Shown here: in pieces, positions 44,353-64,000 of the stretch
Numbering within the stretch: the stretch's first letter is position 1
How the letters are laid out: every line of letters begins with the position of its first letter
Virus record (IMG/VR): IMGVR_UViG_3300044701_003563
Direction: 5' to 3' (one strand)
DNA length: 64,000 bases
Source of the DNA: a virus
Program-made: the position numbers and the translations under genes
Notes under the pieces: generated by a model
What the model was told of the DNA's origin: nothing
The model's input: only the letters and a program-made list of their open reading frames with translations
Database searches by the model: none

Positions 44353-47300
44353 TTATACTCCGAATATGATTGAATAAACTATAGAATCTGTAACTGTTCC
44401 AAATTGATTTATATTTGTTGGGGAATTTGTAGATTTAACAGCATACCCAAAGAAGGAATCTGTAACTTTTGGTGCCTCAACAAATGCGATAGTAATTGGG
44501 TCTGCTGCTTTATTATTTCCACCACCACCAATTTGATTGGTGTTAAATCCACGATTATTTGATGGATCTGGTTCTTGAATAATTCCACCGACAGAAAGTA
44601 TAAATCTTGCCAAACTGTCTATCTCATTATTTATGAATCGTGCAAGATTTCCAGATCCAACAGAATATCCTTGATTTGCAAATAATACTTTATCATATGG
44701 AGTAAATGTAGTTCTAGACCCATCAAACACCTCTTCAAATGCAATTATGACTGTTTGATCTGGAATTGATACTTGTTTTCCTTGTGTTCCTTGTAATCCC
44801 TGATTTCCTTGTGTTCCTTGTGTTCCCTGGAAATTGCTAAGTGCGCCTTGAAGACCTTGCAATCCTTGAACACCCTGGAGTCCTTGAGTTGCTTGAACTC
44901 CCTGATTTCCTTGTAAACCTTGAACACCTTGGACTCCCTGATTTCCTTGAAGACCTTGAACGCCTTGAACACCCTGATTTCCTTGTAATCCTTGGACACC
45001 TTGGACTCCCTGATTTCCTTGAAGACCTTGAACGCCTTGAACACCCTGATTTCCTTGTAATCCTTGGACACCTTGGACTCCCTGATTTCCTTGTAATCCT
45101 TGGACACCTTGGACACCTTGAACTCCTTGATTTCCTTGGAGACCTTGAACACCTTGGACACCTTGGACTCCCTGATTTCCTTGTAATCCTTGGACACCTT
45201 GGACACCTTGAACTCCTTGATTTCCTTGGAGCCCTTGGACACCTTGAACTCCTTGATTTCCTTGAAGACCTTGGACACCTTGGACTCCCTGATTTCCTTG
45301 AAGACCTTGAACACCTTGGAGACCTTGAACTCCCTGGAGACCTTGGACACCTTGGACACCCTGATTTCCTTGAAGACCTTGAACACCTTGATTACCTTGG
45401 AGACCTTGGACTCCCTGAACTCCTTGATTTCCTTGAACTCCCTGGAGACCTTGAACACCTTGGACACCCTGATTTCCTTGAAGACCTTGAACACCTTGGA
45501 CACCCTGATTTCCTTGAAGACCTTGAACACCTTGGACACCCTGATTTCCTTGGACACCTTGGACACCTTGATTTCCTTGGAGACCTTGAACTCCTTGAAC
45601 TCCTTGATTACCTTGGAGACCTTGGGTTCCTTGAACACCTTGAACTCCCTGATTTCCTTGGAGACCCTGAACACCTTGAACTCCTTGAACTCCTTGATTG
45701 CCTTGGAGACCTTGGGTTCCTTGAACACCTTGAACTCCTTGATTTCCTTGGAGACCTTGAACTCCTTGAACTCCCTGATTTCCTTGTAATCCCTGAGTTC
45801 CTTGAACTCCCTGATTTCCCTGGAGACCTTGGGTTCCTTGAACACCTTGAACTCCTTGATTTCCCTGGAGACCTTGGACACCTTGGACTCCCTGATTTCC
45901 TTGTAATCCTTGGACACCTTGGACTCCCTGATTTCCTTGTAATCCTTGGGCACCTTGGACTCCCTGATTTCCTTGTAATCCTTGGACACCTTGGACACCT
46001 TGGACTCCTTGATTGCCTTGGAGACCTTGGGTTCCTTGAACACCTTGAACTCCTTGATTTCCTTGGAGACCTTGAACTCCTTGAACTCCCTGATTTCCCT
46101 GGAGACCCTGAACACCTTGAACTCCCTGATTTCCTTGTAATCCCTGAGTTCCTTGAACTCCCTGATTTCCCTGGAGACCTTGTACACCCTGAGTTCCTTG
46201 AGCACCTTGGAAACCTTGAAGACCCTGTGTTCCTTGAACCCCTTGATTGCCTTGGAGACCCTGAGTTCCTTGAACACCTTGAACTCCCTGATTTCCTTGG
46301 AGACCTTGGACTCCTTGATTTCCCTGTAATCCTTGGACACCCTGAACGCCTTGGAAACCTTGAAGACCTTGTGTTCCTTGAACTCCCTGATTCCCCTGAA
46401 GTCCTTGTGTTCCTTGAACACCTTGGAAACCTTGAAGACCTTGTGTTCCTTGAACTCCCTGATTCCCCTGAAGTCCTTGTGTTCCTTGAACACCTTGGAA
46501 ACCTTGAAGACCTTGTGTTCCTTGAACTCCCTGATTTCCTTGAAGACCTTGAACTCCTTGGGTTCCTTGAGTTCCTTGGAAACCTTGGAGACCTTGAACA
46601 CCTTGAACACCTTGATTTCCTTGGAGACCTTGAACACCTTGGACACCTTGGAAACCTTGAAGACCTTGTATTCCTTGGACTCCCTGATTTCCTTGGAGAC
46701 CTTGAACACCTTGGACACCTTGGAAACCTTGAAGACCTTGTATTCCTTGGACTCCCTGATTTCCTTGGAGACCTTGAACACCTTGGACACCTTGGAAACC
46801 TTGAAGACCTTGTATTCCTTGGACTCCCTGATTTCCTTGAACTCCTTGATTACCTTGAAGTCCCTGAGTTCCCTGGACTCCTTGATTACCTTGAAGACCT
46901 TGAACTCCTTGATTACCTTGAAGACCTTGTGTTCCTTGTACTCCTTGATTACCTTGGAGTCCCTGAGTTCCTTGAACTCCTTGATTACCTTGGAGTCCCT
47001 GAGTTCCTTGAACTCCTTGATTACCTTGGAGTCCCTGATTTCCTTGAACTCCTTGATTTCCTTGTAAACCCTGAACACCTTGGGTTCCTTGATTGCCCTG
47101 AACTCCTTGATTGCCTTGAAGACCTTGGGTTCCTTGGACTCCTTGATTACCTTGAAGACCTTGTGTTCCTTGAACTCCTTGATTGCCTTGAAGACCTTGG
47201 GTTCCTTGAACTCCTTGATTTCCCTGAAGACCTTGGACTCCCTGGACTCCCTGATTGCCTTGGAGTCCCTGAGTTCCTTGAACTCCTTGATTTCCCTGAA

Positions 47301-48894
47301 GACCTTGGACTCCCTGGACTCCCTGATTGCCTTGGAGTCCCTGAGTTCCTTGAACTCCTTGATTTCCCTGAAGACCTTGGACTCCCTGGACTCCCTGATT
47401 GCCTTGGAGTCCCTGATTTCCTTGGAGACCTTGGACTCCCTGGACTCCCTGGACTCCCTGATTTCCTTGAAGACCTTGAACTCCTTGATTTCCCTGGAGA
47501 CCTTGGACTCCCTGGACTCCCTGGACTCCCTGATTTCCTTGAAGACCTTGAACTCCTTGATTTCCCTGAAGACCTTGTATTCCTTGAACTCCCTGATTTC
47601 CTTGGAAACCCTGAAGACCTTGTGTTCCCTGGACTCCTTGATTTCCCTGAAGACCTTGAACACCTTGATCTCCTTGCAATCCTTGAACTCCTTGAGTTCC
47701 CTGGTGTCCTTGAAGACCTTGAAGACCTTGAACACCTTGATCTCCTTGCAATCCTTGAACTCCTTGAGTTCCCTGGTGTCCTTGAAGACCTTGAAGACCT
47801 TGAACACCTTGATCTCCTTGCAATCCTTGAACTCCTTGAGTTCCCTGGTGTCCTTGAAGACCTTGAAGACCTTGAACTCCCTGATTTCCTTGGAAACCCT
47901 GAAGACCTTGTGTTCCCTGGACTCCTTGATTTCCCTGAAGACCTTGAACACCTTGATCTCCTTGCAATCCTTGAACTCCTTGAGTTCCCTGGTGTCCTTG
48001 AAGACCTTGAAGACCTTGAACTCCCTGATTACCTTGGAGACCTTGAACTCCTTGAACTCCTTGAGTTCCCTGGTGTCCTTGAAGACCTTGAAGACCTTGA
48101 ACTCCCTGATTTCCTTGCAATCCTTGAACTCCTTGAGTTCCCTGGTGTCCTTGAAGACCTTGAAGACCTTGAACTCCCTGATTACCTTGGAGACCTTGAA
48201 CTCCTTGAACACCCTGAGTTCCTTGAAAATTACTTAATGCGCCTTGAAGACCTTGAGTACCCTGAGTACCTTGTAAAGCAGTTTTCCAAGAAACAGTTCC
48301 ATCGCCATTTGAATAAAGAAGGTCATCTAAATTCCCACCAAATCCATCTTTATCGTATACTGTTCCGTCTAATTTCAAACTGCCAGCAACATGTAATTTG
48401 GAGTCGGAATATACAATAGTTGTTCCTATTCCTACAGAACCATTAATATATGCTCCACTATAAACTTGAAATAACTGATTTGGTGTTCCAGTTGTTACTC
48501 CAGTTCCTACTCCAATACTTACAGTTCCATTTAAAAATGTTGTAATTCCAGCAACAAATAAGGTTTGTGTCCTTAACTTTTGAATTGCAGCTTCATCAAC
48601 AATTTGCCCCCCAGTAATTTCTGTTGGACCTGCAAAAAATGTTCTTGCAGTAACTACCCCCGTAAAATATCCATCTCCATCGACCCATAAAGCAGCTCCC
48701 TGAGGAGTTTCTGTTCCTATTGCAACTGCATCTGAAAAATATCCTTTTCCTTCTACATGTAAATCTAATATTGCATTATTTGTTCCTACTCCAACTTTAC
48801 CAGCAGCAATCGACAGTACTGTTTCATTTTCCGTATATGAAACAATACCAATATTAACTCTGCGTTGACGATTGCTTAGGTAATTTTTTGCCAT
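44353..48894 (-). CDS. giant collagen-like (Gly-X-Gln)n fibre protein with GIGT-repeat N-domain and globular C-domain
   Basis: ~1150 aa of G-X-Q; N-terminal VGIGT fibre repeats; C-terminal GGIIQEP...IAF.EAP domain. Confidence 0.85.
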   Translation of the reverse strand: MAKNYLSNRQRRVNIGIVSYTENETVLSIAAGKVGVGTNNAILDLHVEGKGYFSDAVAIGTETPQGAALWVDGDGYFTGVVTARTFFAGPTEITGGQIVDEAAIQKLRTQTLFVAGITTFLNGTVSIGVGTGVTTGTPNQLFQVYSGAYINGSVGIGTTIVYSDSKLHVAGSLKLDGTVYDKDGFGGNLDDLLYSNGDGTVSWKTALQGTQGTQGLQGALSNFQGTQGVQGVQGLQGNQGVQGLQGLQGHQGTQGVQGLQGNQGVQGLQGLQGHQGTQGVQGVQGLQGNQGVQGLQGLQGHQGTQGVQGLQGDQGVQGLQGNQGVQGTQGLQGFQGNQGVQGLQGLQGHQGTQGVQGLQGDQGVQGLQGLQGHQGTQGVQGLQGDQGVQGLQGLQGHQGTQGVQGLQGDQGVQGLQGNQGVQGTQGLQGFQGNQGVQGIQGLQGNQGVQGLQGNQGVQGVQGVQGLQGNQGVQGLQGNQGVQGVQGVQGLQGNQGLQGNQGVQGVQGLQGNQGVQGTQGLQGNQGVQGVQGLQGNQGVQGTQGLQGNQGVQGVQGLQGNQGVQGTQGLQGNQGVQGTQGLQGNQGVQGTQGLQGNQGVQGNQGTQGVQGLQGNQGVQGNQGLQGNQGVQGTQGLQGNQGVQGTQGLQGNQGVQGTQGLQGNQGVQGLQGNQGVQGTQGLQGNQGVQGNQGVQGIQGLQGFQGVQGVQGLQGNQGVQGIQGLQGFQGVQGVQGLQGNQGVQGIQGLQGFQGVQGVQGLQGNQGVQGVQGLQGFQGTQGTQGVQGLQGNQGVQGTQGLQGFQGVQGTQGLQGNQGVQGTQGLQGFQGVQGTQGLQGNQGVQGTQGLQGFQGVQGVQGLQGNQGVQGLQGNQGVQGVQGTQGLQGNQGVQGTQGLQGFQGAQGTQGVQGLQGNQGVQGTQGLQGNQGVQGVQGLQGNQGVQGVQGLQGNQGVQGVQGTQGLQGNQGVQGVQGVQGLQGNQGVQGAQGLQGNQGVQGVQGLQGNQGVQGVQGLQGNQGVQGVQGTQGLQGNQGVQGTQGLQGNQGVQGVQGLQGNQGVQGVQGTQGLQGNQGVQGVQGVQGLQGNQGVQGVQGTQGLQGNQGVQGVQGLQGNQGVQGVQGNQGVQGVQGLQGNQGVQGVQGLQGNQGVQGVQGLQGVQGNQGVQGVQGLQGNQGVQGLQGNQGVQGVQGLQGVQGLQGVQGLQGNQGVQGVQGLQGNQGVQGVQGLQGNQGVQGVQGVQGLQGNQGVQGVQGVQGLQGNQGVQGVQGVQGLQGNQGVQGVQGLQGNQGVQGVQGLQGNQGVQGVQGLQGNQGVQGVQGLQGNQGVQGVQGLQGNQGVQATQGLQGVQGLQGLQGALSNFQGTQGTQGNQGLQGTQGKQVSIPDQTVIIAFEEVFDGSRTTFTPYDKVLFANQGYSVGSGNLARFINNEIDSLARFILSVGGIIQEPDPSNNRGFNTNQIGGGGNNKAADPITIAFVEAPKVTDSFFGYAVKSTNSPTNINQFGTVTDSIVYSIIFGV
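44775..48275 (-). repeat. 9-bp periodic (CAR GGN NNN) tandem repeat with higher-order 27-63 bp units
   Basis: ccttg/ccctg recurs every 9 nt; near-identical 63-bp blocks at ~47660-48170. Confidence 0.95.
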
Positions 48895-48896
48895 TG

Positions 48897-49256
48897 TTAG
48901 TTAAGAGTTTCTAATATACTTCCTACAAATTTTAAATTAGTTCCAGAAACTATTCCCGCATTATTACTTGATGATATTACCAATCTATCTCCACTTTCTA
49001 AAATTAATTTTCCACCAAAAAGATTTAAAGTGTCTGTCCCAGAAACTGGATAACTTTTCATCAATTCAGTATCTACTGGAGATCCAGAAACTATTCTCCT
49101 ATGTAAAACAGTAACATCTTCAGAAACATTGCCAACATTTGTTACCTGCGCTAACAAAAAAACCCCAGTATATCCAATTGGAGCTGTGTAAACTTCTTGT
49201 TGTGTTGTCTGTAAAACTTTTGTTACAGTTTGGAATACATTAAGTGCTAATGCCAT
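48897..49256 (-). CDS. small structural/chaperone-like protein, paralogue of 59321..59689
   Basis: ALN.F.T...YT.PIG....Q.TNV...G.L.LE.GD.L.IS...S.LET. Confidence 0.75.
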   Translation of the reverse strand: MALALNVFQTVTKVLQTTQQEVYTAPIGYTGVFLLAQVTNVGNVSEDVTVLHRRIVSGSPVDTELMKSYPVSGTDTLNLFGGKLILESGDRLVISSSNNAGIVSGTNLKFVGSILETLN

Positions 49257-49260
49257 TTCT

Positions 49261-53301: not shown

Positions 53302-53353
53302 TGAAGATAAGGTTCCCTAAGTCCCTATCGATAGGGAGTTTTTTTATTATTTA

Positions 53354-53530
53354 TCAGAAATCATCAGATCCATTATCTACAGACGCAGTTGACTGTATGG
53401 ATCTTTGAAGATCTTCAACCTGTTTTTTTAATTGTGCAATCTGCGTTTCAAGCAGAACGTTTGCATTGAAAAGATCAAATGATCTTTGCTGATATACAGA
53501 AAGTAATGACTTATAATCTTCTTCTGTCAT
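53354..53530 (-). CDS. small coiled-coil protein, 58 aa (not in ORF track)
   Basis: MTEEDYKSLL...LETQIAQLKKQVEDLQ...DDF*; late promoter TATAAATA at ~53552-53559. Confidence 0.65.
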   Translation of the reverse strand: MTEEDYKSLLSVYQQRSFDLFNANVLLETQIAQLKKQVEDLQRSIQSTASVDNGSDDF

Positions 53531-53560
53531 GATATTATATAAACTCTGACCTATTTATAG

Positions 53561-54352
53561 TCAATAAAATCCACCGTCTATAGAAATATTTTCCAAATTT
53601 CTTTCTGAATTTGAACAAGAAATAACTTGAGATTCTCCAGAACAATCACTGAGCCATAAACCACTTATTACCATTGGTGCATAAACAACTGATGATGTAT
53701 CTATGATTGGATCTGTTGTTGCAGCACCAAATTCATTTGCTATAATGGAAACATTTGATGCTATTCCAATTCTACCAGTACTATCATCCCAAAAAATTCC
53801 AGATCTATATCTAGTATTTGATTTATAATAATTAAATAATACGCCCAAATCCCATGTGGTATTTGATGGGGAAATAGTTCCCAATCCTACATTAAAAATT
53901 CTTGCTTGAGTGTCAAAAATTTCTGTATTAAACTTTGAAGATGTTCCACCTACAGAAATATCTCCGTCTACTTCAATTTCTCCAGATAAAACTGGATCAA
54001 TAATTCTATTTGTCCAAAATAAATTTCCATCTCCATCAGTGGAAAGAATATAATCATTAATAGGAGCTGGTGGTAAATAATATCTAAAAGTAGACGGGAC
54101 ATTAGAGGGTGCTCTTAACCCAATAAAGTTTGCTCCGTTATCAGTATTTTCATATAAGTTTATTCCACCACCAGATCCAGAAGATTCCCTTCTCCAGTAT
54201 CTATCGGAACCAAAAAACCTATTTCCAAACAGAGTTCCATCAAATCCAATATAAAAGTCTCTAGTATCTGTAGTTACTCCAGGTTCTCCTAATGCCAATC
54301 CAGGAAGATCTGAATAAGCACCTCTTTTAAATTGAATTACTGGCAGTGGCAT
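53561..54352 (-). CDS. fibre-related structural protein (Mtd-N-like N-terminus)
   Basis: IQFKRG....PGL..GEP..TTDT...YIG; shares the L.AP...Y.LP...L.TDG.G.L.W module with 39908..41371. Confidence 0.7.
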   Translation of the reverse strand: MPLPVIQFKRGAYSDLPGLALGEPGVTTDTRDFYIGFDGTLFGNRFFGSDRYWRRESSGSGGGINLYENTDNGANFIGLRAPSNVPSTFRYYLPPAPINDYILSTDGDGNLFWTNRIIDPVLSGEIEVDGDISVGGTSSKFNTEIFDTQARIFNVGLGTISPSNTTWDLGVLFNYYKSNTRYRSGIFWDDSTGRIGIASNVSIIANEFGAATTDPIIDTSSVVYAPMVISGLWLSDCSGESQVISCSNSERNLENISIDGGFY

Positions 54353-54354
54353 AA

Positions 54355-54696
54355 TTAAAATCCTCCAGCATCGGTATCAATTCTATCGTCGAGATCTTGA
54401 TCCATACGATCGAGGAAGGAAGTTGCATAACCAACAAATCCAGGTTGTATTGTTTCTGTTTCTGCTGCAGCAGTGAACACTTTATCTGGATTAACAGCTT
54501 TCCATTTTCCAGTTGCAGCATTATACATTAAAACATATTGATCATTTGTATCTTCACCATCAAAATCTACTAAATCTGAAAATCTTGCTGGCACTCCTAC
54601 ACCCCCCGTTTGAACATTAACTTTAAATTTTTGTTCTGGTCCTATTTTGATGTTAAAACTTTGAGAATTTGTTTTTGTTACTTTAAAATCTGTCAT
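54355..54696 (-). CDS. small structural protein
   Basis: SDL.D......YVL.YNA.TGKW and D.G.F fibre-type motifs. Confidence 0.65.
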   Translation of the reverse strand: MTDFKVTKTNSQSFNIKIGPEQKFKVNVQTGGVGVPARFSDLVDFDGEDTNDQYVLMYNAATGKWKAVNPDKVFTAAAETETIQPGFVGYATSFLDRMDQDLDDRIDTDAGGF

Positions 54697-55034
54697 AGTG
54701 ATGTACTATCGTTTACTATGATTGATCCTTCAACGACCTTAACAGTATAACCAGTATTTTGATCGACAAGAAAAACATCAAAATAATTTCTACCAGAAGA
54801 TAAATCAGCGGTATCAGTTCTCCCCATCGAGATTTTTACTGATGGAGAATTTACATTTCCAATTACTTCCGTGGTAAATGATTTTGATCTTATTGCTGTT
54901 GGATGCTTTCTAATTTTGGAAACTGCGTCATAATTAACTAAAGAAACAGGACCATTATCTGGTCCAGACACATTAAATGTAGCACTAAAATCAGTGCCTT
55001 TTTCCAAACTTATATTTACAACAGCAACTGACAT
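54693..55034 (-). CDS. Ig-like/BppU-like small structural protein
   Basis: GTDF..TF...IRK...T..L..GR..FDV...V.EG...V; late promoter TATAAATA at 55054-55061. Confidence 0.65.
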   Translation of the reverse strand: MSVAVVNISLEKGTDFSATFNVSGPDNGPVSLVNYDAVSKIRKHPTAIRSKSFTTEVIGNVNSPSVKISMGRTDTADLSSGRNYFDVFLVDQNTGYTVKVVEGSIIVNDSTSL

Positions 55035-55067
55035 TGTTCTGAGATTTTAGAACTATTTATAATTTAA

Positions 55068-56594
55068 TTATGGATATTGTCTCGTATTTATTCCAACTGC
55101 CGCTGGTAAATGTGGTAGTGTATTTGGAGGAATAAGTCCAAAAGTATCTGCCCAATTAACTAAAAGATTATAATATTGTCCAGGAGCAGTTCTAGCGGAG
55201 TTTGTCCAAACTGGCCATCCATTGTTTCTATTTTCAGTTATCGATGCATTTGGATTAAAATCATAATAATTAACTGTTACAGTCTGCCCATTTATAGTTT
55301 TTTGTTGAGTCGATAATCTTTGACCCCCATACTCCCTAACTATAAATTGATTTCTTGCAACAAAAAGAATTCTTACATGCCCACATCCACCGTTACCAGC
55401 AAAAGGAGTTTCAGTTCCAGCTTGTCCACTTGTCTGAGCAGCACCTCCTCCGCCACCATACAATCCACCATTAGGTCTTACCTCTGGAACTGAAAACTCA
55501 TTATCAACACTTCCATTAAATCCCCTTAAACCATTTCCATTTGAAAGATTTTTATAATTTTCATTAATAAGAGGATCTCCAAAAAATGCACCCGAAACGA
55601 AATAATCAGTATCTAATATAACTTCCGTTCCTGTTGCTCTACCATCAGCACCAAAAGAACCTCCCTGTCCACCTCCTCCAGTATTTCCAGAAGATAACGT
55701 TAAAACTCCACCATCTATAACAGATCCATTAAAGAAATAATATGCTTTTTTTCCATTTGGACCCACTCCCCAAAATACTCCTACACCACCTCCACCTCCT
55801 CCAGAGTCTGCTCCTCCACCACCACCCCACATTCCTCCACCACCACCTCCGCCTTGACCATCTTGAGATTCTTGAGTGCCAGCAGTTCCACCATTTCCTC
55901 CATTACCAAACCATCCTCCAGCACCTCCACCACCGCCATCTTGTCCACCACCAACTCCACCCTGAACACCACCATTACCACCATTACCACCTCCAATAGT
56001 TCCCCATGCAAATGTTCCAACTGCGGATCCAGTTCCACCTTGATTTCCAGATGTAATTGCTCTGGCATCTTGCTTAGGCAAAGCGGATTCATTAAATTGA
56101 GTCGTTCCATTCCTAGAATCAATTCTTATTGAATCTGTAACATAAAAATCTTGCCCCCCACCTTGAGCAAAAACAATTATTGTTCCTCCTATACCAGTTC
56201 TACCAGGAACACTTGCATTATTATCTGAAGCAATATAACTAGTTTGCCCAGGACGACCCCATGAAGCATCCCATCCAAGTTGATCAACAACTAAGGTGTG
56301 ATTGCCAGTTCCACCAACTCCAGCCTTTACTCTTAGAATTTCCCCAGGAACTACTGGCATACTATTAATCCAACGAAGTCCACCTCCTCCACCCCCAACA
56401 CCAGGAGTTTGATTGTTTCCTGCACGGCCACCTCCACCTCCACCAATACAAACTGCAGTTATACTTGTAATTCCAGCAGGAACCTGCCACAAATATTCCC
56501 TAGTTGAACAAGCAAAACTTACTTCACCTATAACTGGAAACTTTGTTGTGTCAAGTATATAATGAATTCCACCTTGAGCATCTGGACCTGGCAT
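55068..56594 (-). CDS. glycine-rich adhesin-like protein (polyglycine loops)
   Basis: W.VPAG.TSI..VCIGGGGGG...GGGGGG..W......V.PGE.L....G.GG; final G..G.VRI. Confidence 0.75.
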   Translation of the reverse strand: MPGPDAQGGIHYILDTTKFPVIGEVSFACSTREYLWQVPAGITSITAVCIGGGGGGRAGNNQTPGVGGGGGGLRWINSMPVVPGEILRVKAGVGGTGNHTLVVDQLGWDASWGRPGQTSYIASDNNASVPGRTGIGGTIIVFAQGGGQDFYVTDSIRIDSRNGTTQFNESALPKQDARAITSGNQGGTGSAVGTFAWGTIGGGNGGNGGVQGGVGGGQDGGGGGAGGWFGNGGNGGTAGTQESQDGQGGGGGGGMWGGGGGADSGGGGGGVGVFWGVGPNGKKAYYFFNGSVIDGGVLTLSSGNTGGGGQGGSFGADGRATGTEVILDTDYFVSGAFFGDPLINENYKNLSNGNGLRGFNGSVDNEFSVPEVRPNGGLYGGGGGAAQTSGQAGTETPFAGNGGCGHVRILFVARNQFIVREYGGQRLSTQQKTINGQTVTVNYYDFNPNASITENRNNGWPVWTNSARTAPGQYYNLLVNWADTFGLIPPNTLPHLPAAVGINTRQYP

Positions 56595-56618
56595 AAATTA
56601 ATTCCTCTTAAAATAATA

Positions 56619-59315
56619 TTATGGTGATACCTTAGAATAATAAACTATTGCTTTCAATCCCTTTCCTCCAGTTCCTATTCCAGTAATATCAAATCTTAAT
56701 TGATCATTTCTATTTAAAACTTGATTTGGGAATGTTGTTGGTGAATTTAAGAGAGTTGGGGTATTAACAAATCCAGTTTCACTTTGGTAGTTTCCTACTG
56801 CGATATTTGCTACTGTTGTCCGACTTGAGTATATACTTGTCCAAGAATTAAAGGAAGCTGGGCTAGCATTTCTATCTGCATATAAAACATCTACACTGGT
56901 AATTCCAACAACTGCAGCAGATGAAAGTGAAATTGTTGGTGGTTCTGTAATTCTACACTTAAATGGAACCCTAAATGTTACTACACTTGTTCCAATTCCA
57001 ATGTTTGTAAATTCATCTCCAAGTGCAACAATCAAAGATGTTTCAGAGTTTCCACCCTGAAGGCCCTGAACTCCTTGATTTCCTTGAACTCCCTGTAATC
57101 CTTGAAGTCCTTGTCTGCCTTGGGTTCCTTGAGCACCTACAAATGACACTACTAAATTAAATTGATCATTAAGAACGGGAGATCCATTAGAACTAATTTT
57201 CGTTACAAAATAACTTCTGAATGCTGCTCCATCAGTAATTCTATTGGTAACAAAGAATGAAGCAAAAGTATTAGAGTCTCCAATTTTTGTAAACGTAAAG
57301 ATAGCTTTTTGTGGATTATTTACAGCCTCAACGGCATCCAGTATCGATACAATTGAATTTCCTTCAAAATCAGTTTCGTCTATTGCAAACTGAGTAAAAG
57401 CTCCAGTCCAGGCAGTGCTAAGTCTAAAATATCCATTTCCAGTAGGATCTGCTATTGTCTGTACAGTATCATATAAGAATTTACCACCCAATTGTTTTGC
57501 TGCCGCAAGACCTTGAATTCCTTGAAGACCTTGAACACCTTGATTTCCTTGTCTTCCTTGAAGTCCTTGAATGCCTTGAACACCTTGAACACCTTGTCTA
57601 CCTTGTGTTCCTTGGAATCCTTGAGCACCTTGAGGACCTTGAAGACCTTGAAGACCTTGTATAGAAATATCTCCAACATTAACCCATGTTGTTCCATTGG
57701 CTTGCAATACCCAGACTTCATTGGTAACACTATCAACAACACCATTTCCTGGTTGAGCACCTGGAAAAGTAGCTGTTAAGTAAGTGGATGGATCTGGAGA
57801 CTGTGAGGAAATATTTGCGGCTGTTCCAATAATAATAATAGAAGTTCCAATTCTTCCTTGAATACCTTGATTTCCCTGAACACCTTGATTCCCCTGAACA
57901 CCTTGAAAACCTTGTGTTCCTTGTATTCCTTGTCTTCCTTGGAATCCCTGATTTCCTATAGTTCCTTGTGTTCCTTGTCTTCCTTGAACACCTTGAGTTC
58001 CTTGGAAGTTTCCAATTTGACCTTGAACTCCTTGAAGACCTTGCCTTCCTTGGAGACCTTGATTAAAACTTTGACCAGAAACGCCTTGATTTCCTTGCAG
58101 TCCTTGCAGTCCTTGAACGCCTTGTTCTCCTTGAAGACCTTGTAAAGATCCAGAAAGACCTTGAAGACCTTGGACACCTTGGAAATTACTTAGTGGACCT
58201 TGAACGCCTTGGGATCCTTGTGTTCCTTGAACACCTTGAGAAGTTCCTGAAAAACCTTGACTGCCTTGAATTCCTTGAACTCCTTGACCACCTTGCCTTC
58301 CCTGAAGACCTTGAACTCCTTGAACTCCTTGAGCACCTTGTCTACCTTGAGTTCCTTGGAAGTTTCCAATTTGTCCCTGAACGCCCTGTGTTCCTTGATT
58401 TCCTTGAGCACTTCCAGGAAATCCTTGGGCACCTTGAAAACCTTGATTACCCTGAATACCTTGCCTTCCCTGAAGACCTTGAACTCCTTGAACACCTTGA
58501 AGACCTTGCCTTCCTTGTGTTCCTTGGAAATTACTTAATGGACCCTGAACACCTTGAAGACCTTGAACACCTTGATCTCCTTTAAATACTGCTTGTCCAG
58601 ATATTCCCTGAAAACCTTGGTTGGACAATCCTTGCAATCCTTGCAATCCTTGTTGACCATTAACACCTTGGGTTCCTTGGAAATTACTTAAAGCTCCTTG
58701 AACACCTTGATCTCCTCTAATACCTTGATTTGCAATTCCTTGAACACCTTGGTATCCCTGAGATCCTATTGTCCCTTGGAATCCTTGAGTTCCTTGTGGT
58801 CCTTGAACTCCTTGATTTCCCTGAAGACCTTGAAGACCTTGAGTACCTTGTCCACTTGCTGTTCCCTGAGTTCCTTGGAAATTGCTAAGTGCTCCTTGCA
58901 GTCCTTGAGTTCCTTGTCTCCCTTGATTTCCCTGAAGACCTTGAGTTCCCTGTCTCCCTTGGGTTCCTTGGAAATTACTCAAGGCACCCTGTAGACCCTG
59001 CATACCTTGGGTGCCTTGATTGCCTTGCATACCTTGAGAACCCTGAGTTCCCTGCAGACCTTGAATGCCGTCAGTATCCAAATCAAATGGATCGATCCAA
59101 TATCTTCTCGGATCTCCAGGTCTAGCTGCTAAAACATAAGTTGATCTTGGAAGTCCCAATCCTGGCGGATTATTACCAGTAGATGCGATACCAACCGAAG
59201 GATCACCAAGATGAGGTTCAACCTGATCTAATCCAATGTAACTATATCTATCACTGGTAATTCCAGTTGCATCTCTTCTGAGAGATCTTCCTGTGTTGTA
59301 TCTATTTCTTGTCAT
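56619..59315 (-). CDS. collagen-like (Gly-X-Gln) fibre protein with interspersed globular domains
   Basis: Three G-X-Q tracts (~57860-59075, ~57505-57660, ~57055-57135) with recurrent G(A/P)LSNFQ / GQIGNFQ kinks. Confidence 0.85.
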   Translation of the reverse strand: MTRNRYNTGRSLRRDATGITSDRYSYIGLDQVEPHLGDPSVGIASTGNNPPGLGLPRSTYVLAARPGDPRRYWIDPFDLDTDGIQGLQGTQGSQGMQGNQGTQGMQGLQGALSNFQGTQGRQGTQGLQGNQGRQGTQGLQGALSNFQGTQGTASGQGTQGLQGLQGNQGVQGPQGTQGFQGTIGSQGYQGVQGIANQGIRGDQGVQGALSNFQGTQGVNGQQGLQGLQGLSNQGFQGISGQAVFKGDQGVQGLQGVQGPLSNFQGTQGRQGLQGVQGVQGLQGRQGIQGNQGFQGAQGFPGSAQGNQGTQGVQGQIGNFQGTQGRQGAQGVQGVQGLQGRQGGQGVQGIQGSQGFSGTSQGVQGTQGSQGVQGPLSNFQGVQGLQGLSGSLQGLQGEQGVQGLQGLQGNQGVSGQSFNQGLQGRQGLQGVQGQIGNFQGTQGVQGRQGTQGTIGNQGFQGRQGIQGTQGFQGVQGNQGVQGNQGIQGRIGTSIIIIGTAANISSQSPDPSTYLTATFPGAQPGNGVVDSVTNEVWVLQANGTTWVNVGDISIQGLQGLQGPQGAQGFQGTQGRQGVQGVQGIQGLQGRQGNQGVQGLQGIQGLAAAKQLGGKFLYDTVQTIADPTGNGYFRLSTAWTGAFTQFAIDETDFEGNSIVSILDAVEAVNNPQKAIFTFTKIGDSNTFASFFVTNRITDGAAFRSYFVTKISSNGSPVLNDQFNLVVSFVGAQGTQGRQGLQGLQGVQGNQGVQGLQGGNSETSLIVALGDEFTNIGIGTSVVTFRVPFKCRITEPPTISLSSAAVVGITSVDVLYADRNASPASFNSWTSIYSSRTTVANIAVGNYQSETGFVNTPTLLNSPTTFPNQVLNRNDQLRFDITGIGTGGKGLKAIVYYSKVSP

Positions 59316-59320
59316 TTATC

Positions 59321-59689
59321 TTACTGTTTTGCAGTTTCTAATACACTTAAAACGGACTCAAGTTTCCAATTTTCCGATGCGGAAATGAAAAGAACATCAC
59401 CAGTTTCCAAAGCAAGTCTTCCATCACCAACAATATTATATCCATCATTTGGAGGAATAATTACTCCATTTGATAATTTAAAGCTGACAACTCCAGTCAC
59501 TGGATCTGGATCCCTTGCATGTAAAGCAGTTATACTTGATATTCCAACAGAATTTCCCGTAGAAACATTGGTAATTTGCCAATTAATAATAATACTAGCA
59601 ACACCAATAGGACAAGTATAAATTCCAACATTATTTGTTGTAACTCTTGTTCTAATTGTTCTAAATTTATTAAGTGCAATTGCTGCCAT
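59321..59689 (-). CDS. small structural/chaperone-like protein, paralogue of 48897..49256
   Basis: Shared motifs, see paralogue. Confidence 0.75.
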   Translation of the reverse strand: MAAIALNKFRTIRTRVTTNNVGIYTCPIGVASIIINWQITNVSTGNSVGISSITALHARDPDPVTGVVSFKLSNGVIIPPNDGYNIVGDGRLALETGDVLFISASENWKLESVLSVLETAKQ

Positions 59690-59691
59690 TT

Positions 59692-62600
59692 TTACTTACC
59701 TAATGCGATGATGAGTGGTGTTACTGTTTGCAATAGACTTTGACTGAATGCCCTTCCACTAATTGTTCCAGTTAACTGATTAATGGTCAAATCAGTTCCA
59801 ATTCTAAAGTTACCTGCTTGATTTGTACTTGTAAATACAACTTGTCCTCCATTCAATTTCACAACTTCATTTTCGGCAATTGTCACACCCCCAAGTGCAG
59901 GTTTTGCTTTATTAATGTCTGTTCCTGCTCCAACCCATTCAAAAGAAATTGTTGTTGCAATTTGCAAACTTAGTCTAGAAAAATATACAGTAGTATCTTC
60001 TTCTATTGTATTATTTAGATTCTGCGTAAGAACAACTGTTGATATTCCAGTAATTCCATTATTCCACGGAATAGTGGCAGACTCTACAAAATAATATATA
60101 GGTTCCATTTCAGCTTGAGCTATTGCTTGTGTTCCCCCAGCAAATGGGGGATCAATAGTTACTATAGGAACATTTCTATACTGACTTCCTTCACTAATAA
60201 CATCAATTGAAGTTATTGCTCCCGTTACAGGATCTACGTTTACACTTCCTTCAGCACGAATTCCTCTTGCATTTTCGGGAGGAAGTTCAATAGAAACATT
60301 TGGGGGAACTAAAGCACTGTATCCACTTCCACCATCAATAACATTTAATCTCTTAACACTCTTGAACAATTCACCAAAATAAAGTGCTTGTCCATCATAT
60401 GGTCTATATGTACCTACCCCAGCAATAATTACTCTATCTTGTTCAACTTCTGCCCTTTCATCAACAAAACCTGTCATGTGATAAATTGATTTTGTATTTG
60501 CATCACCAACACCACTGGAATATAATCCATAATTTCCAAAAGAAGCATTAGAGTTTGTAAGGTCACACTGTCCACCAGATCCAGTGAAAATTGCAATATC
60601 ATCACAGATAGTAAAGATAGAAACTAACTGAGAATAACCGCCATTAGTAATAGAAACGCCTATGCCACCTTGATTATATTGAGTATATGAGTCAACACTC
60701 ATTGTTCCAGTTACGCCAATATCATCTTCATATCCAGGTTCTGCATCAAATCCATCAACTTTCATTCCTATACTGTTACCGACAAAATTAGTGCAATTTC
60801 TGATATAAGGTCCTTGTGTAATTGGCCCAACACCTGGGGAATATGGAGGAATTATATAACCATCTCCAATATAAGTATGAGGTATTGTTGAAATTCCAAC
60901 ATCTAAAGTGAAAGTTGAACTCTTTCTTTGTGTTACATTTCTAACTGTTCCGCCAGAAACATATGTGTGTGGGAAAGGTCCTACCCCAGTATTAATTGTG
61001 AGATCATTTCCATTAACTCCATAAACTTTAAATACATAACCAAATTTTCCAGATGGATAAATTGGTGTTGTTTGAGCACCACTGGCACAAGTAAATTCAA
61101 AATCTCTTATTTCTATTAAATCATCAACAGAAACTGAAAAATTTGGATCAGTTACTGTAATTGTTGTTACTCCTGTTGTATGAGTATATTGACAATTTGT
61201 GGCATTATATAATCTATCGGAAATAATATCTACAACTTTAAAATCATTTCCATAAAACTTTCCGCCGAATTCAGTTTGAATAGATTCTGATGGGAAAGTT
61301 GCTGTAATCGTTGGACCCCCACTGCTGCAAGAATAAGTAAGATCACGAATAGTTACAATATCTTCTCTTGAAACATAAGCTCCTGGGGCGGTAATTGTAA
61401 CAATTCCAGAAGTATGGTCATATGGAGCACTGGTTATGTTAAACGTCCTATCAATTACATAACCATCTCTTTCATAAGTATGAGGTAATGTAGAAACTCC
61501 AACATTTAATGTATAGTCATCCCCATTTACATCATCAATATAAAATCTATATCCATAAAATCCTGAAGGAAATACTGATTCGGAAACTGGACCTCCAGAA
61601 GAACATGAAAATACTAAATCCTTTATTTCTATTCTGTCGCCCTTTCTTGCATTTAATCCAGGTACGGTCACTATAACTTTACCAAATACCTCGTCATAAG
61701 TAGCACCAGATACAAACTTAACATTACTAAATGGGATACCTTCCCCTCTATTTCCTGGGAATGACGTAGTAATTCCTGAAGTTTGTCCATATCCAATTAT
61801 TGTAGTTACAACACCTACCAAATTTCTAATTGTAGAAACTACATTTTTGCAACCAGCAATAGATTCGTTTACTCCTTGGGGGAAAAATTCCTCACAACCC
61901 AGAGAAGGATCTTTTTGAATAGCAGCATCTTTTACTTGAGTAAAAGATTTAGTAAATTGTGATCTTCTTTCAATTGTTCCAGATGAATAGGGCCATTCTG
62001 TAATCGTGCTCCATCCTACAGATCCAGCTTCCGCACTACCATCTCCAGAATGATAATGTGCAATTGTGGATGGACCTACCAAAACTTCAAATGTGTTTGG
62101 ATTTGCAGAGAAAAATGCATTATCTTGTGGAAGTCTAAATACGCAGAAAATATTTCCATAATATTTTCCACCATATTCAGTTTGTGCTTCCTCTGATGGA
62201 AAATATGCAGTTGAAAAACCAGGACCACTTCCGCAACCAAATATTAAATTCTCAAAATAAATTGGATCTCCTGGTCTTATATCAGCATCTTCTACTGTAA
62301 CATCATTCCCATTTTGATCTTGAATGAAAACCGTTGCAAATCCGCATTCATTATCATACAAAACATTACTAACAACAAGTTTTCCATATGTAGAAATTCC
62401 TGCTGCTCTAGAACTTAAATATGAAAAATTGTTATTATTAATAATTGATCTTGCAATTAAAAATGAATGTTCTAAGGTTGCTACTGTTTGCTCGACCTCT
62501 TGTGGATTTTTAAGAATTTGTGGAATTAAATTCCAGTCATCATCATAATAAGCACTTCCTGCGTTTATTGCCTCACTATTTCCACCTCTAGTTAAATCAT

Positions 62601-64000
62601 GTACTATCCTTTTCCATACATCCTTAATATCATCTCTGCAATCTTGTTCTACATCAAGATTAACTCCAAAAGTTGTAGTAATCCCAGAAAGATATGTTAA
62701 TCCATTGGAACTTATGTATTGTTGATATAACGTATTTGTAACAATACCAATATTGGTTTTAACGTCATCTATGGTAAGTGTGCAATTTCCAGGAAGTGGA
62801 TCGTAACTTAAGTCCTGATATACCCCTCTAGATCCATATGCATTGCTATTTGCAAATGTCGTAGTTCCAAATCCAACTGCTGCTGGGGATGTTGCCCAAT
62901 CAATGTTATTAACGACATGAGTTGCTATTCCAGCAGCAAAACTTAAAGCATCTACAGTAGCTTTTAAAATACTATTGTTATTAGTATCATTGCCAGTAAT
63001 GTGAAGAAGAGCACCAGCATCACTGAAATATGTTCTAGCAGCACCTATTGATTTTTTATTACTTCCAGATTTTAAATCATTAACTAAAGATTTTAATATA
63101 TCTTTAACATCATCTTCACAATTTACTGGGGCAGTTGGAACGCCATTGACCGAAATAACGAATGGTTGACCATTACTTCCAAGATATCCAAGGGTTCCTA
63201 CATTTCTAGCAGTTAAAAATCCTACAGTTTCTGCAGCAATATAATCAATATTTGCTTCTATTTTTTTAGCAGCATCTTGTGCAAGATGATCTCCAGCATA
63301 ACCACTATATCCACTATGCAGCCAAGCAACAGATTCATTTGCAAGAAAGTCTAGATTAAATCTAAGCATTCTTGCGGCATCAAAATATCGATCTTCCTTT
63401 GTGCCCAAAAGTTTTTCAAGAGATACCATTGCAGCTCCATCTCTTGCGTTTTTTCCTATAAAACTTAAATCAGTTATATGGCAACCATTGTTGACATAAA
63501 ACATATCCTTTTCAGGAAATTTTGGTGTTATTACAACGTTTCTTAGTTCAGTTCCTTCTACAGCAACAAGTTCATTTAAAACTATTGGATTTTCTTCAAC
63601 ATAAATCCCAGGATATACTTTAATAGTATCTCTTGTTAAAGCAACAGATGCTGCACTTTTAATAGTTGCCTTCGCATCTGCTTCACTCAGCCCACTATTT
63701 GCATCATCACCATTTGTAGTAACAAATACTGTTTTACCTACTGGCGCAAAAGATTGAATTGTTACAATACCTTTTCCAGGTACTTGCGTTTCATCAATAC
63801 TAATTCCAGGTCCTGCAACAATTTGAGTTACAATACCAACAAGTCCTGATCCATCACCAGCATATTTTCCAACAGTAAGAGTATCTCCAACTGTAAGATC
63901 ATTAGAAATTAAGGCGCTATTTGATACTGATAGGTTTCCAATAGTTGCGCCAGTTAAACTTGCAGATCCTGCAGAAAGAGATCCAAATAAACCAGAAGAT
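59692..64000 (-). CDS. large fibre/spike protein, 5'-truncated by the window edge; paralogue of 49261..53301
   Basis: Frame stays open upstream of the Met at 63504 (GKTVFVTTNGDDANSG...AKATIKSA...GIYVEENPI); PYIRNCTNF...DSYTQYNQGGIG; C-terminal FTSTNQAGNF.IG...TP.I.ALG. Confidence 0.8.
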   Translation of the reverse strand, partial: SSGLFGSLSAGSASLTGATIGNLSVSNSALISNDLTVGDTLTVGKYAGDGSGLVGIVTQIVAGPGISIDETQVPGKGIVTIQSFAPVGKTVFVTTNGDDANSGLSEADAKATIKSAASVALTRDTIKVYPGIYVEENPIVLNELVAVEGTELRNVVITPKFPEKDMFYVNNGCHITDLSFIGKNARDGAAMVSLEKLLGTKEDRYFDAARMLRFNLDFLANESVAWLHSGYSGYAGDHLAQDAAKKIEANIDYIAAETVGFLTARNVGTLGYLGSNGQPFVISVNGVPTAPVNCEDDVKDILKSLVNDLKSGSNKKSIGAARTYFSDAGALLHITGNDTNNNSILKATVDALSFAAGIATHVVNNIDWATSPAAVGFGTTTFANSNAYGSRGVYQDLSYDPLPGNCTLTIDDVKTNIGIVTNTLYQQYISSNGLTYLSGITTTFGVNLDVEQDCRDDIKDVWKRIVHDLTRGGNSEAINAGSAYYDDDWNLIPQILKNPQEVEQTVATLEHSFLIARSIINNNNFSYLSSRAAGISTYGKLVVSNVLYDNECGFATVFIQDQNGNDVTVEDADIRPGDPIYFENLIFGCGSGPGFSTAYFPSEEAQTEYGGKYYGNIFCVFRLPQDNAFFSANPNTFEVLVGPSTIAHYHSGDGSAEAGSVGWSTITEWPYSSGTIERRSQFTKSFTQVKDAAIQKDPSLGCEEFFPQGVNESIAGCKNVVSTIRNLVGVVTTIIGYGQTSGITTSFPGNRGEGIPFSNVKFVSGATYDEVFGKVIVTVPGLNARKGDRIEIKDLVFSCSSGGPVSESVFPSGFYGYRFYIDDVNGDDYTLNVGVSTLPHTYERDGYVIDRTFNITSAPYDHTSGIVTITAPGAYVSREDIVTIRDLTYSCSSGGPTITATFPSESIQTEFGGKFYGNDFKVVDIISDRLYNATNCQYTHTTGVTTITVTDPNFSVSVDDLIEIRDFEFTCASGAQTTPIYPSGKFGYVFKVYGVNGNDLTINTGVGPFPHTYVSGGTVRNVTQRKSSTFTLDVGISTIPHTYIGDGYIIPPYSPGVGPITQGPYIRNCTNFVGNSIGMKVDGFDAEPGYEDDIGVTGTMSVDSYTQYNQGGIGVSITNGGYSQLVSIFTICDDIAIFTGSGGQCDLTNSNASFGNYGLYSSGVGDANTKSIYHMTGFVDERAEVEQDRVIIAGVGTYRPYDGQALYFGELFKSVKRLNVIDGGSGYSALVPPNVSIELPPENARGIRAEGSVNVDPVTGAITSIDVISEGSQYRNVPIVTIDPPFAGGTQAIAQAEMEPIYYFVESATIPWNNGITGISTVVLTQNLNNTIEEDTTVYFSRLSLQIATTISFEWVGAGTDINKAKPALGGVTIAENEVVKLNGGQVVFTSTNQAGNFRIGTDLTINQLTGTISGRAFSQSLLQTVTPLIIALGK

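Follow-up and report, generated by a model that had tools for sequence, protein, structure and literature searches.

In the long tail fibre of T4, genes 34-35-36-37 encode, in this order, a large proximal component, a small protein of the joint and the distal fibre, whose host-facing distal part varies. In the literature read, we found no account of how T4-like cyanophages attach their fibres, and their many giant 'tail-fibre-like' genes are left there without a place. The proteins gp10 and gp12 belong to a core set limited to the non-cyanophage T4-like phages (Sullivan et al. 2010, PMC3037559). Already listed as tail-fibre-like are orf293, orf294 and orf295 of P-SSM2 (T4-GC 288-290; PMC1079782), the last of which has been proposed to combine a fibre and a gp10-like baseplate domain in one fusion protein (Sullivan et al. 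2005, PMC1079782); 'Bacteriophage collagen' is cited in the same article as Smith et al. 1998.

Along the 64,000-nucleotide stretch of viral DNA analysed here (the window), three genes occur twice in the same order, as a sequence-only reading had proposed, encoding a large protein, a small protein and a fibre; all lie on the minus strand (Table 1), with intergenic gaps of 2–5 nt within both triads. The large open reading frame of triad 1 is truncated by the window end, with 66 residues falling outside; the genome record (L014:13681-18186) gives the full-length protein as 1501 aa. The module itself is already known from elsewhere, being that of P-SSM2 orf293/294/295: the large protein P0002 is 56% identical to orf293 over the shared parts, the small protein P0004 is 49.6% identical to orf294, and the fibre N-terminus is common to both. 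P-SSM2 and, with counterpart genes, S-SRM01 (gp329-331), B3 (gp329-331), S-B05, S-CAM7, S-SKS1 and S-SCSM1 all carry these three families, ordered as in the window and only a few bases apart. The genes are annotated as tail-fibre-like in some isolates; we found no description of them in the literature as a linked unit. Whereas each isolate record, that of P-SSM2 included, holds one triad, the window holds two, and there are several uncultured contigs with two or three. The large protein, usually about 620 aa in isolates, reaches 1346 and 1501 aa in the window because of nested inserts, and the isolates' third genes encode non-collagen shafts, some with what appears by eye to be a C-terminal intramolecular chaperone motif.

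Table 1. The two triads and the genes that follow them in the window
Feature	Coordinates	Strand	Basis
Triad 1 large protein (type 1)	59692..64000	-	BLASTP against triad 2; PHROG 17885/3442, E 1e-244
Triad 1 small protein, 122 aa, clade 1	59321..59689	-	Jelly-roll family, phrog_1276
Triad 1 fibre, 898 aa, type-1 N-terminus	56619..59315	-	Pfam Collagen PF01391
508-aa protein after triad 1	55068..56594	-	Pfam Gly_rich_2
113-aa β-sandwich protein	54693..55034	-	LtfC-like / phrog_3304 ('L-shaped tail fiber protein assembly')
113-aa protein, no family	54355..54696	-	Conserved in sister contigs
263-aa fibre-like protein	53561..54352	-	Mtd_N-type N-terminal motif (PF18454, 26.7 bits)
Triad 2 large protein (type 2), 1346 aa	49261..53301	-	β-helix and conserved C-terminal 245 aa
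Triad 2 small protein, 119 aa, clade 2	48897..49256	-	Jelly roll, AlphaFold2 pLDDT 89.6
Triad 2 fibre, 1513 aa	44353..48894	-	Conserved ~45-aa N-terminal segment, Gly-X-Gln collagen
991-aa protein after triad 2	41371..44346	-	phrog_5838 'virion structural protein'
494-aa protein	39908..41392	-	Weak PHROG 'virion structural protein' match, C-terminal part

A survey of 164 viral-contig loci (84 of type 2 and 80 of type 1) placed the large-protein C-terminus directly upstream of the small gene in every case (84/84 and 80/80) and the matching fibre N-terminus directly downstream in 156 (80/84 type-2 and 76/80 type-1), with type-2 fibre N-termini at none of the 80 type-1 loci. When 171 triad instances were typed, 78 proved to be S1-L1-F1 and 82 S2-L2-F2, and no cross-combination of the window's two types was seen among them. 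Co-occurrence and order are thus kept across related genomes, as the earlier proposal of a modular triad would have it. Mean pairwise identity over 50 non-redundant loci peaks in the last 95 aa of the large protein (82%), the small protein (75%) and fibre residues 1–45 (63%), and stands at 28% for fibre residues 46–120 and 25% for residues 121–200; the variable element is the distal part of the third gene, identity dropping after fibre residue 45.

The large proteins had been said to share long conserved blocks, and BLASTP between them recovers three, with the quoted motifs present: an N-terminal part (47% identity, E 2e-22), 109 aa of the β-helix core (70%, E 2e-40) and the C-terminal 240 aa (42%, E 3e-46). 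In triad 1 a fibre-like N-terminus precedes a right-handed β-helix interrupted by an insert of ~870 aa, and the last ~245 aa are conserved; the triad 2 protein begins with IRIKRS...GELALNT, has a contiguous β-helix at about residues 50–275, and bears a nested insert of four helical modules between the β-helix and the conserved C-terminal 245 aa. The N-terminus of the large protein looks like a fibre attachment motif. No Pfam or NCBIfam family was found for either large protein, only sub-threshold phycobiliprotein matches in the P0002 insert; these databases likewise gave no enzyme family, no catalytic residues could be assigned, and sequence searches of solved structures with both proteins returned nothing useful. 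Modelling of a 620-aa homologue (L082:8132-9991), at moderate confidence (pLDDT 67.5), gave a predicted fold that matches the tailspike of cyanophage Pam1 (7EEA; Z 17.6, rmsd 2.5, 191 residues aligned) as well as alginate lyases and tailspike depolymerases (Z 13–17), with a Foldseek match at E 4e-6, so that the anchor or spike envisaged for this protein is, by predicted structure, β-helical and tailspike-like. The core fold is shared with the Pam1 tailspike and with the Sf6, CBA120 and Klebsiella depolymerases (Z 13–17.6, ~190–215 residues aligned); unlike theirs, the triad β-helix carries large nested inserts and is the most conserved part across phages rather than the host-specific part. The C-terminal 95 aa, where conservation of the large protein is highest, stay unfolded when modelled as a monomer (pLDDT about 25–35), consistent with a segment whose folding would require a complex.

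The small proteins align end to end, as had been observed (37% identity, E 8e-15), and the triad 2 copy is predicted with confidence to be a jelly roll. This ~110–120-aa phrog_1276 protein lies directly downstream of the large gene in both triads. Its fold matches are generic (best Z 9.4) and indicate no function; phage cement and turret proteins are among its neighbours, weak matches (Z 6.6–6.8) include C1q-like and collagen NC1 trimer heads, and the predicted viral structures closest to it include proteins of S-SCSM1, S-TIM5 and MaMV-DC that are named as virion or virion structural proteins. No Pfam or NCBIfam family was found for it, the protein and its profile returned nothing useful from the sequences of solved structures, and the neighbouring 113-aa, 184-aa and 263-aa proteins show no kinship with it. 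A protein atlas search yielded unnamed viral clusters only. Neither a word-based nor an exhaustive profile search found the small domain fused to the large protein or the fibre; longer forms, which the word-based search did not find, emerged from the exhaustive profile search as insertions of domains into the small protein and not neighbour fusions. In an uncultured non-T4 lineage the triad order is kept, and the small protein there carries 680–1370 aa of the helical module that decorates the window's large protein. A scan for the P0227 locus found nothing with a single protein and succeeded when based on an alignment.

Both third genes encode collagens with the kink described earlier, proline-poor Gly-X-Gln runs with LSNFQ breaks in each (five, plus two IGNFQ, in the first collagen and two in the second). 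The 898-aa fibre, which scores 194 bits against PF01391 (cut-off 27.2), has its collagen runs interrupted by these LSNFQ/IGNFQ breaks and contains two non-collagen inserts; in the 1513-aa fibre, a fibre-repeat region lies between the ~45-aa N-terminal segment and a collagen of 370 unbroken G-X-Q triplets (residues 225–1334), with Gln in 380 of 381 triplets when all collagen runs are counted and no proline at all. Each ends in its own non-collagen C-terminal domain of ~140 aa. The DNA of the two collagen genes is only about 68% identical, at the level of the repeat, and recent gene conversion between them was rejected. Long Gly-X-Y runs with non-collagen ends are shared with the collagen-like phage tail fibres of PF01391, from which the triad fibres differ in the nearly invariant Gln at Y, the absence of proline and the single 370-triplet run; lacking proline, the predicted triple helix would need other contacts for its stability. 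Collagen is not, however, the defining third member that it had been taken for: about half of the related third genes encode a different shaft, and in all six isolates examined the third gene lacks collagen. Among the 84 related loci, 42 distinct collagen-like ORFs also have Gln at 40–100% of Y positions. A profile of the fibre N-terminus matched the trimeric Bdellovibrio fibre protein Bd2133 (E 6e-7); with that protein and its relatives (PDB 8OND, 8OJN) the triad fibres share the repeat G-x-V-G-I-G-T...L-x-V-x-G, placed after the fibre N-terminal segment, but only this short repeat is common, and the Bdellovibrio proteins have no triad context.

Different genes follow each triad, as the earlier reading had it, a Gly-rich protein in one case and the 991-aa and 494-aa proteins in the other. 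These genes may, as proposed earlier, encode tips of the same appendages; each collagen protein has a non-collagen domain of its own at the C-terminus. Conservation of the 508-aa Gly-rich protein in two sister contigs is limited to its first ~190 aa, and the protein that occupies the corresponding position in L082 shares 34% identity with the 991-aa protein. Five copies of the T4 late-promoter motif TATAAATA lie on the coding strand, two of these within the triad region, and five is the number expected by chance. The claim that these appendages are unlike T4 gp34-38 appears to hold at the level of sequence, in that Pfam, NCBIfam and solved-chain searches gave no similarity to gp34, gp35, gp36 or gp37 and the PHROG families matched by the triads, named 'tail fiber protein' or 'virion structural protein', are not tied to gp34-37. 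In layout, the order of large protein, small protein and fibre, with a variable distal part, does parallel gp34-gp35-gp36/37. This likeness is a functional analogy only: protein 1 of the triad is a tailspike-like β-helix and not a rod, and gp35 has 372 aa against the 115-aa jelly roll of the triad.

On balance, we think it somewhat probable that the region comprises two co-resident, type-distinct cyanophage fibre cassettes, with a conserved three-protein joint and an exchangeable fibre. The first gene product, a β-helix protein, would serve as the tail anchor of the fibre; the second, a jelly-roll protein of ~115 aa, would be part of the virion; and the third would be a trimeric fibre with its first ~45 residues conserved and the remainder freely exchanged. 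In the window its shaft is predicted to be a collagen-like Gly-X-Gln helix that lacks proline and is joined to a C-terminal domain of its own. The jelly-roll protein may form one physical joint with the C-terminus of protein 1 and the N-terminal segment of the fibre, with the distal fibre swapped by recombination just past residue ~45 and the types kept apart so that each fibre would mount only on its own anchor, yielding two independent fibre sets for the virion. Adjacent genes share their history, so the non-mixing of types may partly reflect linkage. A bolder formulation, which we hold to be plausible though short of an even chance, is that the jelly-roll protein is a dedicated and type-specific joint between a conserved β-helix anchor and interchangeable fibres, serving one to three mutually orthogonal plug-in fibre sets per virion, in cyanophages and at least one other, uncultured lineage; equally tentative are its further elements, a swap point after fibre residue ~45 and an anchor and joint that bear the same nested surface modules.

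It is hardly credible that the second triad arose by chimeric assembly or by recent tandem duplication and is without functional meaning. The viral record is metagenome-derived and estimated to be 61% complete, which would suit such a reading, but both triads, in this order and with their four spacer genes, recur in two other independent contigs, every ORF is intact, and the paralogues are only 37–42% identical and belong to two deep clades, the P-SSM2 orf293-295 type and the S-CAM7/S-SKS1 type, each with single-triad relatives. This depth, together with the divergence of the collagen DNA, does not support the local duplication that the sequence-only reading had implied: by their sequences, the two triads are old, diverged copies of one cassette. 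Were the three proteins instead separate co-transcribed tail or baseplate parts, the fibre N-terminus, which could dock on another conserved tail part, would plug into the baseplate or a different fibre protein and not into the large protein, and the small protein would decorate or cement some other site, as its cement and turret fold neighbours, the gp10-like domain proposed for P-SSM2 orf295 and the lack of any fusion linking the three proteins might suggest. We judge this unlikely, given the strict adjacency and order at 164 loci as well as in a second phage lineage, the conservation maxima exactly at the two gene junctions, and the way in which large C-terminus, small protein and fibre N-terminus vary together by type; moreover, a profile of 35 fibre N-termini, covering the first 120 aa only, matched no solved T4 gp10 chain at E values up to 10.

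The other alternative makes the small protein an assembly or trimerisation chaperone for the large C-terminus or the start of the fibre, setting the collagen register for example, and not a stoichiometric part of the virion. Such a role, which had also been put forward for it, would suit a small protein tightly coupled to its neighbours, a large C-terminus that is unfolded alone in the model, and the weak trimer-head fold matches, yet it strikes us as quite improbable. Chaperone genes of the gp38 or Tfa type lie downstream of the fibre gene, whereas the small gene lies upstream; Pfam, PHROGs and NCBIfam gave no match between the small protein and the gp38, Tfa or gp57A chaperone types; the protein is present with or without a collagen shaft; and the relatives that bear up to 1370 aa of the large protein's surface module are hard to reconcile with a transient chaperone. 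Presence in the virion, which the appendage reading supposes, is indicated by S-SCSM1, in whose record the homologues of the whole triad, gp026/027/028, bear the label of virion proteins; in S-TIM5 and MaMV-DC, too, proteins structurally close to the small protein are annotated as virion structural proteins. For S-SCSM1 this assignment rests on the record labels and a figure legend (PMC9602691); 45 proteins are reported there from virion mass spectrometry, 13 of them of unknown function, and the proteome includes some non-structural proteins (PMC9602691). Of the two roles for the small protein, that of chaperone is thus the less likely, and a structural one agrees with the three-protein joint that we favour.

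A conserved cassette would explain why these genes travel together, and the number of cassettes, one in isolates and two or three in some uncultured contigs, would mark the number of fibre sets per virion. The sharp boundary between constant joint and variable fibre offers a testable unit for host-range evolution in phages of Synechococcus and Prochlorococcus, and the collagen-like Gly-X-Gln shafts, being free of proline, offer a natural case in which to test the stability of triple helices. A type-specific jelly-roll joint, if true, would be a fibre-attachment system without a described counterpart.

The window is the minus strand of bases 63877-127876 of a 127,876-base IMG/VR record estimated to be 61% complete, and its gene content (CobS/CobT-like genes, a helicase, RNA ligases and many tail-fibre-like genes) identifies the source as a T4-like cyanophage, with Synechococcus and Prochlorococcus myoviruses as its best database relatives. 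All open reading frames (ORFs) that the sequence-only reading had assigned to two triads, each comprising a large tailspike-like gene, a small gene and a fibre gene, lie where it had placed them, all on the minus strand and with 2-5 nt between genes inside each triad.

Triad genes and neighbouring features of the window; sister contigs are UViG_3300047510_002062 and UViG_3300021963_007290
Feature	Position	Strand	Observation
Triad 1 large gene	59692-64000	-	ORF exceeds window end; 1501 aa in genome record
Triad 1 small gene	59321-59689	-	
Triad 1 fibre gene	56619-59315	-	898 aa
508-aa protein	downstream of triad 1		Candidate tip; first ~190 aa conserved, remainder divergent
TATAAATA, second copy	55054-55061	-	
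113-aa protein	54693-55034	-	phrog_3304 'L-shaped tail fiber protein assembly', E 6e-19; Pfam LtfC-like beta-sandwich, below threshold; kept in both sister contigs
263-aa fibre-like protein	53561-54352	-	N-terminus above Pfam threshold for Mtd_N, the major tropism determinant N-terminal domain (26.7 bits vs 26.3)
TATAAATA	53552-53559	-	T4 late-promoter-like motif ahead of 58-codon ORF
Unlisted 58-codon ORF	~53354-53529	-	Just upstream of triad 2 large gene; coiled-coil look; gap of similar size in sister contigs
Triad 2 large gene	49261-53301	-	1346 aa
Insert of triad 2 large protein	50080-52400		Sub-threshold phycobiliprotein matches in the repeated helical module (Pfam Phycobilisome 20.9 bits; TIGR01338 23.7 bits)
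Triad 2 small gene	48897-49256	-	
Triad 2 fibre gene	44353-48894	-	1513 aa
991-aa and 494-aa proteins	downstream of triad 2		Candidate tips; matches to virion structural protein families
394-aa protein	23647-24831	-	phrog_562 'RNA ligase and tail fiber protein attachment catalyst' (T4 gp63-like), E 3.5e-71

The long blocks said to be common to the two large proteins resolve into three. Identity is 42% over the C-terminal 240 aa (E 3e-46), 70% over a beta-helix core of 109 aa (E 2e-40) and 47% over a more N-terminal stretch of the helix (E 2e-22). In triad 1, ~870 aa lie between this N-terminal stretch and the core; the triad 2 protein has an unbroken helix, after which comes a big insert filled with a Cys-x-Arg-Asp helical module. 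The sites of beta-helix interruption differ between the paralogues, and relatives of ~620 aa are without most inserts. A moderate-confidence model (pLDDT 67.5) of one such minimal homologue (620 aa, L082:8132-9991) predicts a right-handed parallel beta-helix, matching the tailspike of cyanophage Pam1 (Z 17.6, rmsd 2.5, 191 residues) and, further, PL6 alginate lyases, tailspike depolymerases and pectin methylesterases; the last ~95 residues of the large homologue show the highest sequence conservation, yet are unfolded in this monomer model (pLDDT about 25-35).

The small proteins do align end to end (37% identity, E 8e-15). The small protein is confidently predicted to adopt a jelly-roll sandwich (pLDDT 89.6). 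Its nearest predicted viral structures are members of its own family and small proteins of S-SCSM1, S-TIM5 and MaMV-DC that are named virion or virion structural proteins. Among solved structures, Bacillus Ena subunits, the KHP40 trimeric cement protein, archaeal virus turret proteins and nucleoplasmin were matched (best Z 9.4); these are generic small oligomeric jelly rolls that give no pointer to function. The small gene occurs once in every phage record listed (79 places in 79 records; 86 in 86).

The two third genes encode collagen-like proteins that have Gln at the Y position and carry the LSNFQ register breaks ascribed to them. The triad 2 fibre has 370 uninterrupted G-X-Q triplets and zero proline, and the triad 1 fibre 14 shorter runs. 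Forty-two distinct collagen-like ORFs occur at 84 type-2 loci (L004-L093). All except one have Gln at 40-100% of their Y positions, and most contain almost no proline, so that shafts of the proline-poor Gly-X-Gln kind are frequent among these uncultured phages. The LSNFQ break seldom occurs outside the closest relatives of the window. In the isolates named below, the third genes have an N-terminus in common with the window fibres, and non-collagen shafts. Those of S-CAM7 (L009:9381-15425) and S-SCSM1 (L011:9283-11418) end in an …IAQEVE… motif, which by eye we take to be the intramolecular chaperone that endosialidase-type fibres carry at their C-terminus; neither collagen fibre of the window has it. 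A profile of fibre N-termini (first 120 aa) matched fibre proteins of Bdellovibrio that are trimeric, the similarity lying in a G-x-V-G-I-G-T repeat (E 6e-7), and matched no solved T4 gp10 chain at E up to 10.

Isolates carry the same arrangement of a large family gene, directly followed by a ~110-117-aa small homologue and then a long fibre-like gene: P-SSM2 orf293/294/295 (T4-GC 288-290), S-SRM01 gp329-331, B3 gp329-331, S-CAM7, S-SKS1 and S-SCSM1 gp026-028. An HNH endonuclease gene lies directly upstream of the large gene in S-SRM01, P-SSM2 and S-SKS1 (L001:8573-8944, L002:8571-8942, L010:5780-6151) and is missing from that position in the window; it may bear on cassette movement between genomes. 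The S-SCSM1 triad, with three further genes, sits between the small and large terminase genes (L011:3995-15729), away from other fibre genes.

Gene order, for which a synteny survey had been suggested, is also kept across viral contigs. A search with the type-2 small protein gave 84 loci, of which 84 had the large C-terminus directly upstream and 80 the type-2 fibre N-terminus directly downstream; its type-1 counterpart gave 80 loci, for which the corresponding counts were 80 and 76, with the type-2 fibre N-terminus at 0 of 80. A few loci were counted in both surveys. The 171 triad instances comprise 78 all-type-1 sets (plus 4 without a fibre match), 82 all-type-2 sets (plus 4) and 3 of a third, more distant type, with no cross-combination of the window's two types among them. 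A maximum-likelihood tree splits the small proteins into two clades (support 100/98), the triad 1 copy grouping with S-CAM7 and S-SKS1, and the triad 2 copy with P-SSM2, S-SRM01, B3 and S-SCSM1. The module had been called duplicated: two homologous triads there are, but given two supported clades and collagen DNA only about 68% alike, a private duplication does not hold. Rather, the clades and the conserved cassette types indicate that the triads are old co-resident lineages.

Mean pairwise identity across 50 non-redundant type-2 loci was 64% over the 150 aa preceding the last 95 aa of the large protein, 82% over those 95 aa, 75% for the small protein, and 63%, 28% and 25% for fibre residues 1-45, 46-120 and 121-200. 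By these alignments, the constant element is the block across both gene junctions, with the distal fibre exchanged.

Beyond the homology, gene order, folds and conservation pattern shown by these comparisons, we infer contacts, stoichiometry and orthogonality of the triad proteins, and propose that the product of each triad would be a single composite side fibre. Its beta-helix protein, a trimer, would be mounted on the tail through the N-terminus; a conserved joint would unite the large C-terminus with the jelly-roll protein and the initial ~45 fibre residues; and the variable, host-facing end would lie on the distal fibre, here a Gly-X-Gln collagen-like shaft (~300 nm for the 1513-aa fibre if fully helical, an estimate that assumes the customary per-residue rise). 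Cross-assembly between the fibre sets would be prevented by having two diverged types in the genome. A 2005 paper (PMC1079782) lists P-SSM2 orf293 and orf295 as tail-fibre-like, and all three S-SCSM1 proteins carry the label 'virion protein' in the genome record; the S-SCSM1 paper (PMC9602691), in which CsCl-purified particles were analysed by mass spectrometry, reports 45 proteins, 13 of unknown function. Less probably, the three proteins are independent baseplate parts.

The small protein could alternatively be a chaperone. An exhaustive profile search returned 791 relatives, most of 105-120 aa and several of 797-1480 aa. The expanded form, 789-1480 aa long across its lineage (P0224, P0226, P0227, P0234, P0249, P0259 and P0269; loci L174-L186, for example L179:5326-16112), occurs in none of the isolates. 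These long forms have the first strand, MALIPLNTFKTKT, at the N-terminus and the remaining jelly roll in the last ~105 residues, with 680-1370 aa inserted between first and second strands: the same helical module as in the triad 2 large protein. Their loci keep the order of the triad: first comes a large protein matching in both the beta-helix and the C-terminus, next the expanded small protein, and last a third protein with a type-1-like N-terminus. The large surface decoration of the neighbouring protein is thus accepted by the small protein too, which is easier to reconcile with an exposed structural component than with a transient chaperone. The two-triad arrangement is very unlikely to be an assembly artefact; both sister contigs carry both triads in the window's order, separated by the same four spacer genes (about 460-508, 111-113, 103-113 and 263-279 aa), and two further contigs hold type 1 and type 2 triads about 18-21 kb apart, one with a third triad of the more distant type, whose small protein has 226 aa (L172:186-5666).

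The gene families and their adjacency are already visible in published isolate annotations; in the cited literature we found no description of a strict three-part cassette with a defined swap point, of two non-mixing triad types, of genomes with two or three cassettes, or of nested expansion of the small protein. The cassette belongs among phage tail-fibre modules, and, because long-form triads adjoin the non-T4 head genes of an uncultured phage lineage, it reaches beyond T4-like cyanophages.
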